A DNA stretch of 62,218 bases from Verrucomicrobiota bacterium (lineage in GTDB: Bacteria > Verrucomicrobiota > Kiritimatiellia > RFP12 > UBA1067). Position 1 is the first letter of the stretch. Each line of letters opens with the position of its first letter. Below, piece by piece: positions 12,133 through 58,075 of this stretch. The notes beneath the pieces are model-generated. The model was not told where the DNA came from. It searched no databases and worked only from the letters and a program-made list of their open reading frames with translations. The position numbers were made by a program, and so were the translations under genes. The stretch spans positions 1 through 62,218 of the forward strand of contig JAKJGY010000002.1 in the NCBI GenBank assembly GCA_022704145.1, written 5' to 3'.

Positions 12133-13632
12133 ATGGCGGCAATCGGAAATGCGGATTGGATCGTGATGGGGGTTTATGCGGCGCTGACCGCCGTGCTCGC
12201 CTGGCTGGCGGCACGTCGGCAGAAGAAGGGCGCCGACGACTACTTCACCGGCGGCCATGCGATGAACGGCTTCGCGGTGGGGCTCTCGATCTTCGCGGCG
12301 GCCTTCAGCGCGGCCGCGTTCGTGATGCTGCCGCGCGAGGGCGCCTACCGCAACTGGGGCCTGCTGTCGGTCCTGCTCCTGATCCCGCTCTTGATCACGC
12401 CGCTGCTCTGGCACGTTTTCGTGCCGCTCTACACGCGGCTCGGCATCCGCAGCGTCTACGAGTATCTGGCGATCCGCTTCCACCCGCGCCTGCGGCGACT
12501 GGGAGCCGTGCTCTTCTTCGGCTACGCCTTCGGCTGGCTGGGCAGCATGCTCTACACGCTGGTGCTGATCCTCGATGCTGTGATGGGACTGAGCCAGCCC
12601 CAATTCCTGGCCGCGCTGGTCGGCATCGGCGCGGTGGCGATCCTCTACGCCTGCATCGGCGGGCTCAAGGGCATCATCTGGCTCGACGTGCTCCAGGCCG
12701 TCACGCTGGGCGGCTGCGTGATCGTCATCCTGCTGCTGGCCATCGGCCGCGTGGACGGCGGCCTCACGGCGGTCATCGAGACCGGGCGCGCCCACGGCAA
12801 GTTCGCCCTCGCGGATGTCGCGGCGGGCATCAAAGGCCAGACCAGCGTCTGGTGGGTGCTCGCTCTGGCCCTCTTTGTCTATCTGCCCGGCTACACCACC
12901 TCGCAGGTGACGGTGCAGCGTTACCTCAGCATGTCCGGCCCGAAGGAGCTGCACCGCGCGCTGACGCTCAACGCGCTCGTCGCGACGGCCGTCTACTTCC
13001 TCTTCATGCTGGTCGGCACGGTGATCTTCGTCTACTACCGGCAGACGTCCGGCGCGCTGCCCGCGCTCGCCAGCCAGGATCAGATCCTGCCGCACTTCAT
13101 CGTGCGCGACCTGCGCGTGCCGGGTATTGCGGGCCTGACCTGTGTCGGTCTGCTCGCCGCGGCCCTGAGCACTTTGGAGGGCGGCTTTAACAGCATCGCC
13201 TCGGTCATCACCTTCGACCTGCTCGACCGCCGCCAGACCTCCGTGAGGGCGAACCGCGTGATGACCGCCCTGATCGGTGCGGGTGTGGTCGGCTGCGCGC
13301 TGCTCGCCCCGTATATCGGCAAGAACTTCATCGACCAGATCACCGCCGTTGCCAGCACCTTCCTCGGGTTGCTGCTGGGCGTTTACGTTCTGGGCATGTT
13401 CTCGGCTCGCGCTAACGCGGGCGGCGCGGCTTTCGGGCTGGCGGCCGGAGCCGCAGGCGTGGCCTTCTGCTGGCTCTATCCCGGTATTCCCGCGTGGTGG
13501 TGCGGGGCTTTCGCTTTCACGCCCACGCTTCTGGTCGGCCGTCTCGCGAGCGGGCTCTTCCCGCCGCCGACGGCGGAGCAGCGACGCGGGATCTTTTTCA
13601 CGCAGATCGAGTCTGTAAAGCAACCGGAATAG
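12133..13632 (+). CDS. Sodium:solute symporter (SSS family), probable sugar transporter
   Basis: About 13 hydrophobic helices; DYFTGG, GLSIFAAAFS, SVYEYLAIRF, GGLKGIIWLD, QVTVQRYL, AALSTLEGGFNS. Start 12133 or GTG 12124. Confidence 0.9.
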   Translation: MAAIGNADWIVMGVYAALTAVLAWLAARRQKKGADDYFTGGHAMNGFAVGLSIFAAAFSAAAFVMLPREGAYRNWGLLSVLLLIPLLITPLLWHVFVPLYTRLGIRSVYEYLAIRFHPRLRRLGAVLFFGYAFGWLGSMLYTLVLILDAVMGLSQPQFLAALVGIGAVAILYACIGGLKGIIWLDVLQAVTLGGCVIVILLLAIGRVDGGLTAVIETGRAHGKFALADVAAGIKGQTSVWWVLALALFVYLPGYTTSQVTVQRYLSMSGPKELHRALTLNALVATAVYFLFMLVGTVIFVYYRQTSGALPALASQDQILPHFIVRDLRVPGIAGLTCVGLLAAALSTLEGGFNSIASVITFDLLDRRQTSVRANRVMTALIGAGVVGCALLAPYIGKNFIDQITAVASTFLGLLLGVYVLGMFSARANAGGAAFGLAAGAAGVAFCWLYPGIPAWWCGAFAFTPTLLVGRLASGLFPPPTAEQRRGIFFTQIESVKQPE

Positions 13633-13755
13633 TGGAATGTTGGAATGATGGAATCATGGAATGCTGGCGCGAGAACATGCGGAACAGAGTGTTCCTTGAA
13701 TCGCCCCGTATTCCAATCTTCCACCATTCCAGCAAGCCACTGTTCCATCATTCCA
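13626..13755. repeat. 8-nt-period GGAATnnT tandem/inverted hairpin element, copy A
   Basis: Left arm GGAATAGT GGAATGTT GGAATGAT GGAATCAT GGAATGCT; right arm TATTCCAATCTTCCACCATTCCAGC..TTCCATCATTCCA. Confidence 0.85.
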
Positions 13756-13760
13756 AAGGA

Positions 13761-15227
13761 ATGACAATCGTGCGCATAGAAAGAAGGAAACCGCTGGCCG
13801 CGAAGGTCGGCATCGTGGGTGTCGGGCACCACACCTACTGGGCGCAGTTCGACGGCCTGCTGGACGAGCTGAAGGGCAAGCTGGTCCAGTTCGAGGCGAA
13901 GGTCAGGGCTTGCGGCGTCGAGACCGCGTCCTTCGGTATCCTTGACAAAGCCCAGGACGCCTACGACGCGCTGCCGGAGATGAAGGCCGCCGACCTCGAC
14001 GTGCTCTTCATCGACATGGTCACGTACGCGACCTCGTCCACTTTCGGTGTTCTGGCGCGTGACCTCAACGTGCCGATCGTGCTGGTGGCGTTGCAGCCGC
14101 TCAGGGCGATGCCGTACGCGACGGCCAAGACCTACACGCAGCTCTGCAACGACGACTTCTGCTCGGTGCCGGAGTTTACGGGCGTGGCGATCCGCATGGG
14201 GCGGCCGGTGGCGGATGTGATCCTCGGTGTGCGCGAGGGCGACCCGGCCGCGGACGCCGAGATTGCGCAGTGGTGCCAGCTCGCCAAAGTCCTGCACGAC
14301 CTGCGGCGCGCGCGCATCGGGCTGATGGGCCACGTGCTGGAGTCGATGTACGACATGCACGTCGACCCGACGGCGGTCACGTCCGCCTTCGGCTGCCATG
14401 TGGCGCTCTGCGAGCCGGACGAGATCCTGAAGCATTACCTCGTCGAAGACCGACCGGCCGTCGAGGTGATGAAGGCGCGCATCCTGGCGTTCTTCGACAC
14501 GCCCGACCCGGTCTCCGACCCGATCACCACCAAGCTCACCGAACGTGATCTGGAGGTCGCGGCGAAATCGGCGGTGGCGCTGGAGAGGTTCGTGGCGGAG
14601 CGTAATCTGGACGGGCTGGCCTACTACTACGAGGCGCTGCCCGACACGCCCCTGCGCGAACTCGTGACCAACCTGATCGTAGGCAACTCGCTGCTGACGG
14701 GCGCGGGTTTCCCGATGTGCGGCGAGTACGACCTGAAGAACTGTATCGCCATGATGATCCTGGACCGGCTCGATATCGGCGGCAGCTTCGCGGAGTTCCA
14801 TCCGGTCGATTTCGAGCGCGACACCGTGCTGGTCGGCCACGACGGGCCGCATCATCTGAACATCGCCTCGCGCAAGCCTGTCCTGCGCTCGCTCAAGACT
14901 TACCACGGCAAGCCGGGCAGGGGGGCGGGCGTGGAGTTCAGTATCCAGGAGGGGCCGATCACGATGCTCTCGATCGGCGTGAAGGCCGACGGCAAGCTGA
15001 AGTTCGTGATCGCCGAAGGCGAGTCCCTGGCCGGTCCGATCCCTCCGACCGGCAACACCAACACGCACGGGAAGTTCCTGCCGGACGTGCGCACTTTCCT
15101 CAAGCGCTGGGTCTTGGAGGGGCCGACGCACCATTTCGCGCTGGGTGTGGGGCATCATGCCGACGCGCTGGTCAAGCTCGCGCAGGTGCTGAATATCGAG
15201 TCGGCGGTCGTGACGCCGCAGCGGTAG
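13761..15227 (+). CDS. L-fucose/L-arabinose isomerase-family sugar isomerase
   Basis: N-terminal KVGIVGVG; CGEYDLKNC, SFAEFHP, GHDGP and GPTHHFALG metal-site motifs. Start 13761 or GTG 13770. Confidence 0.8.
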   Translation: MTIVRIERRKPLAAKVGIVGVGHHTYWAQFDGLLDELKGKLVQFEAKVRACGVETASFGILDKAQDAYDALPEMKAADLDVLFIDMVTYATSSTFGVLARDLNVPIVLVALQPLRAMPYATAKTYTQLCNDDFCSVPEFTGVAIRMGRPVADVILGVREGDPAADAEIAQWCQLAKVLHDLRRARIGLMGHVLESMYDMHVDPTAVTSAFGCHVALCEPDEILKHYLVEDRPAVEVMKARILAFFDTPDPVSDPITTKLTERDLEVAAKSAVALERFVAERNLDGLAYYYEALPDTPLRELVTNLIVGNSLLTGAGFPMCGEYDLKNCIAMMILDRLDIGGSFAEFHPVDFERDTVLVGHDGPHHLNIASRKPVLRSLKTYHGKPGRGAGVEFSIQEGPITMLSIGVKADGKLKFVIAEGESLAGPIPPTGNTNTHGKFLPDVRTFLKRWVLEGPTHHFALGVGHHADALVKLAQVLNIESAVVTPQR

Positions 15228-15257
15228 GGGGAGGGTGATGCCGGCCGGCGCCGTGCC

Positions 15258-57124: not shown

Positions 57125-57907
57125 ATGGTGGTGCGAAAGGTGACGCGGGCGCGTAAGATCACGGGCGTGCCGATCTTGGAGCGGACGCTGGGGCTGCTGG
57201 AGTACCTGAGCCAGTGCCCGGCCGGCGTGGCGCTGAGCGAGATCGCGCGGGCGCAGAAGATCCCGAAGAATACGACCTACCGGATGCTGAACACGCTCTG
57301 CGCGCGCGGCTACGTGGCGCGTAACGAGGCGGAGCTGACCTACCGGCTCACGCGCAAGCTGGCGACACTCGTCTATTCCAGCGCGCAGGACGGAAGCCTG
57401 ATCGAGAAGGCGCTCGGGCCGATGCGCGCGCTACGTGACCGCGTGAAGGAGACGGTGGTGATCAGCATCCTCGACGGATCGGAGGGGATCGTGCTGGAGC
57501 AGGTTCCGGGGTTGTACCCGTTCCGTTTCGTTTGCGATCCGGGCACGCGGCAGCCGCTGCACGCGTCGGCCTCCACCAAAGCCATCCTCGCGTTTCTTCC
57601 ATCGGAGGAGCGCGAGGCGCGCCTTTCCGGTCTGACCTTTGCGCGTTTCACGGAGAACACCCTCACGCGGGCCGCCGCCTTCCGCAAGGAGCTGGCCGAG
57701 ACGCAGGCGCGCGGCTACGGCATCGACCGCGCCGAGGCTTTGCACGGTGTTCACTGTGTTGCGGCGCCTGTGCTGAACCGGCAGCGCCAGCCTGTGGCGG
57801 CGATCACGGTGACGGGGCCGGACGAGCGGTTGCGCGCGGAGGATTTCGCGCAGATCGGCGAATGGGTCAAGGCGTGCGCGCGCGAGGTCTCGGAAGGGAT
57901 CGCGTGA
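57125..57907 (+). CDS. IclR-family transcriptional regulator
   Basis: VPILERTLGLLE..LSEIAR..PKNTTYRMLNTL HTH; PLHASASTKAIL; RGYGID..CVAAPV..AITVTGP. Confidence 0.95.
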   Translation: MVVRKVTRARKITGVPILERTLGLLEYLSQCPAGVALSEIARAQKIPKNTTYRMLNTLCARGYVARNEAELTYRLTRKLATLVYSSAQDGSLIEKALGPMRALRDRVKETVVISILDGSEGIVLEQVPGLYPFRFVCDPGTRQPLHASASTKAILAFLPSEEREARLSGLTFARFTENTLTRAAAFRKELAETQARGYGIDRAEALHGVHCVAAPVLNRQRQPVAAITVTGPDERLRAEDFAQIGEWVKACAREVSEGIA

Positions 57908-57919
57908 GGGCTGGGAAGG

Positions 57920-57965
57920 AACGTTCAACGTTTAACGCTTGCGGCTTAAGGCGGGCGGAGCCCGC
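57920..57965 (+). repeat. Three AACGTTY-like 7-mers followed by a small GC hairpin
   Basis: AACGTTC AACGTTT AACGCTT; GCGGGC-GGA-GCCCGC at 57951-57965. Confidence 0.55.
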
Positions 57966-57975
57966 AAACCAAACC

Positions 57976-58075
57976 GGAATACTGGAATGGTGGAAAGAGG
58001 GAATGGTGGAATGATGGGGTTTGAGACCGAAGCAGCCGAAGTTCTCTTCCAACATTCCAGTATTCCACCCTTCCA
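57976..58075. repeat. 8-nt-period GGAATnnT hairpin element, copy D
   Basis: GGAATACT GGAATGGT GGAAAGAG GGAATGGT GGAATGAT ... TTCCAACATTCCAGTATTCCACCCTTCCA. Confidence 0.85.

Follow-up and report, generated by a model that had tools for sequence, protein, structure and literature searches.

The closest described systems are the intervening sequences (IVSs) of 23S rRNA in Coxiella burnetii and Leptospira (PMC4990558, PMC47033). The Coxiella IVS is 428 nt long, has a 28-bp terminal stem that is cut by RNase III, and carries an open reading frame (ORF) for S23p (PF05635), upstream of which lie GACAGAT/GACAGAA heptamers whose number varies by strain (PMC4990558). PF05635 proteins resemble Avd of diversity-generating retroelements (PMC10053308). 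Repetitive extragenic palindromes (REPs), a second class, are marked by GTAG or CGTC tags and have RAYT partners (PMC3733652). Here we analyse a family of hairpins whose arms are tandem arrays of 8-nt units and of which four copies (A to D) lie in a 62,218-nt stretch of DNA, referred to as the window (contig JAKJGY010000002.1, here C391), from a Verrucomicrobiota bacterium (assembly GCA_022704145.1, here G000; 4.57 Mb, 415 contigs, 68% GC, 88% complete). Other points of comparison are miniature inverted-repeat transposable elements (MITEs) and foldback transposons, including the bacterial Correia and Nezha elements and the Drosophila FB elements, the arms of which are themselves tandem repeats. 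Cyanobacterial short tandemly repeated repetitive (STRR) heptamers, reportedly described by Mazel et al. in 1990, are also said to be tandem 7-nt units, intergenic and present in many copies, differing from the present elements in unit and phylum.

On balance, and with some reserve, we read the four window loci as ORF-less, IVS-like foldback cassettes lodged in the spacers between the stop codon of one gene and the start codon of the next, with predicted folding in the mRNA. As in IVSs, which have a stem of about 28 bp (PMC4990558, PMC47033), there are terminal inverted repeats, variable-number short tandem repeats in the arm (Coxiella GACAGAT/GACAGAA is the unit of a cassette in the relative G017), PF05635 (S23p) cargo in the cassettes of relatives, a sporadic distribution suggesting horizontal transfer, and insertion tolerated through RNA self-folding, the folds here being predicted ones. 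Unlike IVSs, which occupy helices 9, 25 or 45 of 23S rRNA, the window copies are ORF-less and lie in mRNA spacers, have long octamer-array arms, belong to a family with dozens of copies per genome, and are only candidates for excision by RNase III. Literature searches found no account of array-armed cassettes or of their ORF-less hairpins in mRNA spacers, and searches with the octamer strings returned unrelated primers only.

The pattern GGAANNNTGGAANNNTGGA, with at most one mismatch, matched 23 times in the window, every time at A to D, against 0.03 ± 0.17 matches in dinucleotide shuffles. Tandem Repeats Finder reported period 8 at each of the four copies, in which the arms have three to seven units. 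An earlier sequence-only reading of the window had described A, B and D as hairpins and C as a half element of a dispersed non-coding family, neither clustered regularly interspaced short palindromic repeats (CRISPRs), nor classical REPs, nor terminal-inverted-repeat MITEs, and these descriptions were confirmed, as was the common start of A and D, both of which open with ACCGGAATA. For D the arms were found as described, and the hairpin proved to be only the core of a 175-nt composite repeat, whose modules are lacking from A, B and C, which are bare arrays. The features are as follows.

13626..13754, + strand: copy A, a bare hairpin; GGAAT-type arm 13626-13667, 39-nt spacer, ATTCC-type arm 13707-13754
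13626-13667 and 13707-13754: units of copy A, five GGAATNNT followed by six of the NNNATTCC type
53034..53145, - strand: copy B, a degenerate hairpin; arms 53034-53073 and 53112-53145
54146..54205, - strand: copy C, a single array of about seven units with no partner arm, TTCC-type on the sense (-) strand
57946..58120, + strand: copy D, one 175-nt composite; arms 57976-58017 and 58043-58074, 25-nt central hairpin 58018-58042
57946-57975, + strand: 5′ module of copy D; TTAA, GC hairpin GGCGGGCGGAGCCCGC, AAACCAAACC
58075-58120, + strand: 3′ module of copy D; AAAACAACTTGTTGTTAATCACAGTTTTTCGTTTGTAAGGCACCTA

All four copies lie between protein-coding genes, outside 23S rRNA, and none contains an ORF. 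Copy A fills the gap between an SSF transporter gene and a fucose/arabinose-isomerase-like gene with a GTG start at 13770, and its first octamer contains the transporter stop codon, TAG (13630-13632). The C-terminal tail of the transporter, FTQIESVKQPE, is unlike that of the G022 ortholog, which together with the position of the stop codon indicates that the insertion rewrote the end of the protein. Copy B is intra-operonic, with E1-alpha ending before it (stop at 53151) and E1-beta beginning after it (start at 53023). Read along the sense (-) strand, its GGAA arm (53145-53112) precedes its TCC arm (53073-53034), which ends 11 nt 5′ of the ATG, and no Shine-Dalgarno sequence was found before E1-beta at this site. 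The array of copy C ends right at the E1-alpha ATG (54146).

Genome-wide, the same unit was recovered at many places. The period-8 tandem repeats of G000 are mostly made of TGGAAKNN, with 106 arrays of at least three units at 70 loci, so that the family is indeed dispersed. A three-unit pattern gave 71 + 58 matches and the same pattern read backwards gave none. Among 41 genomes of the same order, arrays occurred in 13, with 0 to 257 matches per genome, and the backwards control was zero in 40 of the 41. Among the hairpin loci of G000, the GGAA arm is 5′ and the TTCC arm 3′ at 49, against two with the opposite order, both of which are neighbouring elements that chance to abut. Such a hairpin is identical on either strand, so that a gene starting beside one meets a TTCC arm and a gene ending beside one meets a GGAA arm. 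No Rfam covariance model matched at gathering score; only chance miRNA-like matches (E > 0.4) were returned.

The tie to IVSs comes from genes enclosed by arrays of the same design. PF05635, the family of the 23S rRNA intervening-sequence protein (Avd-like), has matches in 37 of the 41 genomes and ten in G000 itself, where five to six of seven PF05635 ORFs are flanked by a purine-rich array on one side and the complementary array on the other. Arm units in G000 include GGAAAGT/ACTTTCC and GAAACTG/CAGTTTC, and the downstream arm abuts the ribosome-binding site of the next gene. In relatives, inverted arrays bracket PF05635 genes at all 8 chosen loci and at 10 of the 12 top loci. Site A in G017 is occupied by a PF05635 gene with (GACAGAA)n upstream and (ATTCTGG)n downstream. 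Arms of the GGAAT/GGAAG type themselves bracket PF05635 genes in two genomes of the order (G031:C171 and G028:C111) and in two Bacteroidota metagenome-assembled genomes. The four encoded proteins form one clade (support 0.996) to which none of 13 further PF05635 proteins from the order belongs, the G031 protein being 53% identical to a Bacteroidota one; GGAAT arms thus go with one PF05635 subfamily. The search for ORFs enclosed by arms was therefore successful for PF05635 in relatives, and it returned no ORF in A to D and no transposase-type ORF between GGAA and TTCC arms in G000. A link to four-helix-bundle genes, which the sequence-only reading had mentioned, is accordingly upheld. Its statement that the copies keep to accessory carbohydrate loci does not hold as a rule: G000 copies adjoin unrelated genes, and cassettes of like build lie between groES and groEL in two genera, with differing arm units (L168, G018:C26; L169, G011:C22), so that housekeeping operons are also targets. 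In one GGAAG-armed case (L180, G028:C111:2741-3001) the PF05635 match covers residues 4-90 only, within a 485-aa open frame, and this gene is probably decayed or fused.

Genes of a second family, PF13366 (PDDEXK_3), are bracketed likewise by other units, such as CACGAAG, CGCGAAT and CGCAAAG. A second window hairpin, at 49470-49555, has CGCGAAT-type units with a 10-nt period, and its vocabulary (for example CGCGAATGAA) brackets PF13366 genes in relatives such as G004 (L196). This bracketing accounts for the window hairpin, which looks like an ORF-less PF13366-type cassette. Further tandem-unit families in G000 (GAAACTG, GGAAAGT, AACGCTC and GGAGTTA; for example C150:1391-13834, C261:23765-25154 and C341:9288-9374) form hairpins in some cases and flank PF05635 genes in others.

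Presence and absence of the elements were compared at orthologous sites. For site D, IclR orthologs 77-86% identical were found in G001, G022, G010 and G012. In G001 and G022 the stop codon is followed by heptamer-like GGAACGTTCAAC...AACGTTC, the next gene begins about 50 nt on, and the whole 175 nt is missing; in G010 and G012 the spacer after the IclR ortholog is also without the element. Directly 3′ of the IclR stop in the window, GGAACGTTCAACGTTTAACGCT (57919-57945) is kept in G001 and G022 and could represent either an operator for IclR or a relic of the AACGYTC heptamer family, which has nine arrays elsewhere in G000. For site A, isomerase-like orthologs are 86-88% identical, and G022 and G003 keep the transporter upstream with a short, array-free spacer; the insert in G000 extends exactly from GGAATAGT to CATCATTCC. 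The presence/absence polymorphism that had been anticipated is thus real for A and D, which are missing from the same junctions in related genera, indicating that genomes acquire and lose the elements at the DNA level; the empty sites were found and a target duplication was not. At site B, where the comparison used E1 homolog junctions with possibly paralogs among them, the junctions of G010 and G014 carry other G-poor 7-8-nt repeats just 5′ of the ATG ((CCTAACAG)2 after a GC hairpin plus CGCAACCCAA in G010, (TAAATCC)3 in G014), and those of G012 and G026 have no repeats. A synteny walk from the IclR ortholog to sites B and C in relatives was dropped, as gene order differs. One composite is common to G000 (C400:19538-19749) and G017, between kinase and response-regulator genes, with flanks about 95% and the element about 80% identical; its stems have predicted energies of -34.9 and -35.4 kcal/mol despite the roughly 20% divergence. 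Old copies can thus exist beside new ones. One gene downstream of this composite, at C400:20512-20850, a PF13366 gene lies between CGCAAAGAG / CTCTTTGCG arrays.

The composite to which copy D belongs was delimited with nhmmer. With one copy as query, 74 matches were obtained, the best 41 of which share an alignment of about 175 nt that is sharply bordered and has unrelated sequence on either side. The order is CTAA, GC hairpin GCGGGCnnnnGCCCGC, AACCCAAATT, three to six GGAAKNNT units, one of two central hairpins, three to four NNMATTCC units, and an A/T-rich module ending GTAAGGCAC-TAA. Copies differ in both arms by 8-nt indels. In five copies the CTAA of the element provides the stop codon of the upstream gene, and many copies end 9-30 nt ahead of the next start codon. 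Orientation relative to flanking genes is biased, not fixed (18 sense, 6 antisense, 6 convergent, 6 divergent). No target-site duplication was detected at the composite, its flanks lacking a variable direct repeat, and the sequence at one end is not an inverted repeat of that at the other. The CTAA found at either end was considered as a target-site duplication and ruled out, the two ends showing no co-variation; CTAA is thus part of the element or a fixed target. The elements are MITE- or foldback-like in being non-autonomous, with inverted ends and insertion between genes, and differ in having no target-site duplication, no known transposase and, in the composite, ends that are not mutually inverted. 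The 5′ and 3′ modules are also found singly or framing arms of other units such as CACGAAG (on C282), which indicates a mosaic design, as in bacterial interspersed mosaic elements (BIMEs), which likewise combine modules (PMC3733652). At C282:19976-20140, modules of the copy D type frame CACGAAG/CTTCGTG arms, so that frame and arms are exchangeable.

The family extends well beyond the order. An exact four-unit pattern identified at least 120 stretches across phyla; among the matches listed were Desulfobacterales (many), Bacteroidota, Planctomycetota, Verrucomicrobiota, Kiritimatiellae, Lentisphaerae, Chloroflexota, Poribacteria and others. Many of these are hairpins in which GGAA precedes TTCC and which share the outer boundary AATTGGAAT, often beside a small GC hairpin.

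These observations suggest how such an insertion might be accommodated. In its full form the element would consist of a purine-rich array, a PF05635 gene and a complementary array, placed between the stop codon of one gene and the ribosome-binding site of the next, a layout of the same design as the classical ORF-bearing IVS of 23S rRNA. The elements observed occupy stop-to-start spacers, with unit number shifting in 8-nt steps, and the precedence of the GGAA arm (49 loci against 2) fits the cassette design, in which the purine arm lies upstream of the ORF. The element would be co-transcribed with its neighbours, and its arms may pair into a 25-40-bp stem that draws the flanking stop and start codons together, which would explain toleration of the insertion inside operons. 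By analogy with IVSs, the stem might be an RNase III substrate, the insert then being cut out or the transcript severed. RNA folds were predicted for A (-73.9 kcal/mol, z -7.9), B (-42.5 kcal/mol, z -4.5) and D (-62.2 kcal/mol, z -2.4), the folds of A and B lying far beyond shuffles in stability and that of D moderately beyond them.

Several results weigh against this interpretation. The arms had been expected to show compensatory pairing, and this was not seen: at variable unit positions the two arms of a locus match no better than arms of different loci, and in duplex energy own arms pair no better than swapped ones. Pairing arises because the two arms have one small vocabulary of units in common (TGAT, TACT, TGGT, TGTT, GGGT, GACT). 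At 21 of 31 co-directional loci the sense strand gives a better fold than the antisense strand (p = 0.027), although only slightly, which weakly suggests RNA-level selection, and single arrays such as C are unable to form a hairpin. No transposase, recombinase or target-site duplication was found for the array elements. Descent of the window copies from cassettes is suggested by their shared arms, and the lack of an ORF in A to D counts against it. A PF05635 gene of the GGAAT subfamily is absent from G000 (88% complete) and from G021, G022, G004 and G017. G021 is a complete genome with the most arrays (257 matches), yet it too lacks such a gene. The hairpins of G000 are in this sense orphans, and spread and upkeep of the arrays need no resident cognate gene.

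As an alternative, the elements could be REP- or REPIN-like, moved in trans as single-stranded hairpin DNA by an HUH tyrosine transposase, either the RAYT-SLOG protein encoded at 2306-3307 of the window or another Y1 enzyme, with insertion 3′ of CTAA. The composite opens with CTAA beside a GC hairpin and closes with CTAA without a variable duplication, as this mechanism would have it, and the stop codons supplied by CTAA in five copies, an orientation bias of about 2:1 with flanking genes and three further Y1_Tnp-like genes in G000 speak for it as well. The elements also share with REPs, BIMEs and REPINs their nature as short, multi-copy extragenic palindromes, often at gene ends, patchy among species and probably transcribed; they differ in having no GTAG/CGTC tag, no RAYT linkage, and arms that are tandem arrays rather than a single short palindrome (PMC3733652). 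The tag was not found in the composite, the 5′ module of which reads CTAA-YGC-GGGCnnnnGCCC. RAYT-SLOG had been put forward as one candidate mobiliser in the sequence-only reading, but it and the arrays are distributed differently: 35 of the 41 relatives have a homolog against 13 with arrays, orthologs 92% and 88% identical are found in G010 and G003, yet these genomes have no arrays, and G012 has elements and no homolog. The hairpins beside the window RAYT-SLOG gene are unrelated to that of the element, the composite has dissimilar hairpins at its two ends, and CTAA is missing from the ends of bare hairpins such as A. The three paralogous Y1_Tnp-like genes, of about 345 aa (C282:20398-21420, C415:788-1828 and C63:10157-11179), were rejected as movers, having a different flanking motif of their own; motifs of the GGGACAGGT type lie ahead of the C282 and C415 genes, the one on C282 being GGGACAGGTAAT. 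Transposition by an HUH enzyme is therefore considered unlikely. On C282, C103 and C314, ATTACCTGT(CCC) follows, directly or a few bases on, a CTAA lying at the end of a 3′ or 5′ composite module or after it. A 1.6-kb inter-array segment in a Bacteroidales genome was discarded as an autonomous copy, as it encodes Lpd, a housekeeping enzyme, and clustering of ORFs near 113 loci of other phyla gave only generic families, none recurring beside arrays.

Even less credible is plain slippage, in which the arrays would be mini-satellites growing in place in AT-richer spacers, with no mobile element and no tie to cassettes. Variation of unit number by 8-nt steps, long single arrays in other phyla and the different 7-8-nt repeats at homologous junctions of different genera are what slippage would produce, but the 175-nt composite recurs at unrelated sites, in more than 40 sharply bordered copies with identical non-repeat modules, the TGGAAKNN unit and the AATTGGAAT boundary recur across phyla, the backwards control pattern has no matches in G000, and the order of the arms is fixed (49 to 2). 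The least credible of the three is a host cis-regulatory RNA (an attenuator, translational operator or protein-titrating leader of carbohydrate and Aco-like operons, with alternative registers as the switch), for although hairpins do lie in 5′ leaders and intercistronic spacers with the TTCC arm ending 0-15 nt from start codons, sense-strand folding is slightly better, and GGAAUGNU arrays resemble a Shine-Dalgarno sequence plus AUG with the TTCC arm a putative anti-Shine-Dalgarno, the arrays are not kept at orthologous sites, they adjoin unrelated genes in both orientations, the unit stands beside unrelated genes in many phyla, locus-specific covariation and Rfam matches are lacking, and ordinary Shine-Dalgarno sites are otherwise used in G000. 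TTCC arrays as ribosome-binding sites for an altered 16S rRNA tail were likewise rejected, genes of G000 showing ordinary AAGGA/GGAGG enrichment at -14 to -7; the G000 assembly contains no rRNA genes, 16S included.

Returning to the IVS-like cassettes, we offer a broader proposal tentatively, and think it possible rather than probable. Each arm might consist of stacked sites that are recognised by the protein encoded in the cassette itself, TGGAAT for one Avd-like, pentamer-forming PF05635 subfamily and CGCGAAT/CACGAAG for PF13366 PD-(D/E)XK proteins; (TGGAATGA)n may be the candidate recognition array for the PF05635 protein of G031:C171. The cassettes would then form a cross-phylum class of protein-coupled insertion elements that enter 23S rRNA as well as stop-start spacers, cancel their own effect at the level of the RNA and give rise to hundreds of hairpins without an ORF. 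If correct, such a class could also account for the heptamer and octamer repeats that have long been known from bacterial genomes, and a large share of AT-rich hairpins and 7-8-nt intergenic arrays would have one origin, in small cassettes of the IVS kind, shared by Planctomycetes-Verrucomicrobia-Chlamydiae (PVC) bacteria, Desulfobacterota, Bacteroidota, Chloroflexota and others. It would give a context to the very common genes annotated as 'four helix bundle' (PF05635) and PDDEXK_3 (PF13366), and would flag frequent mis-annotation of start codons and operons at such sites. It would further allow tests of how an operon, such as that of E1-alpha and E1-beta, can accommodate an insertion without being broken.

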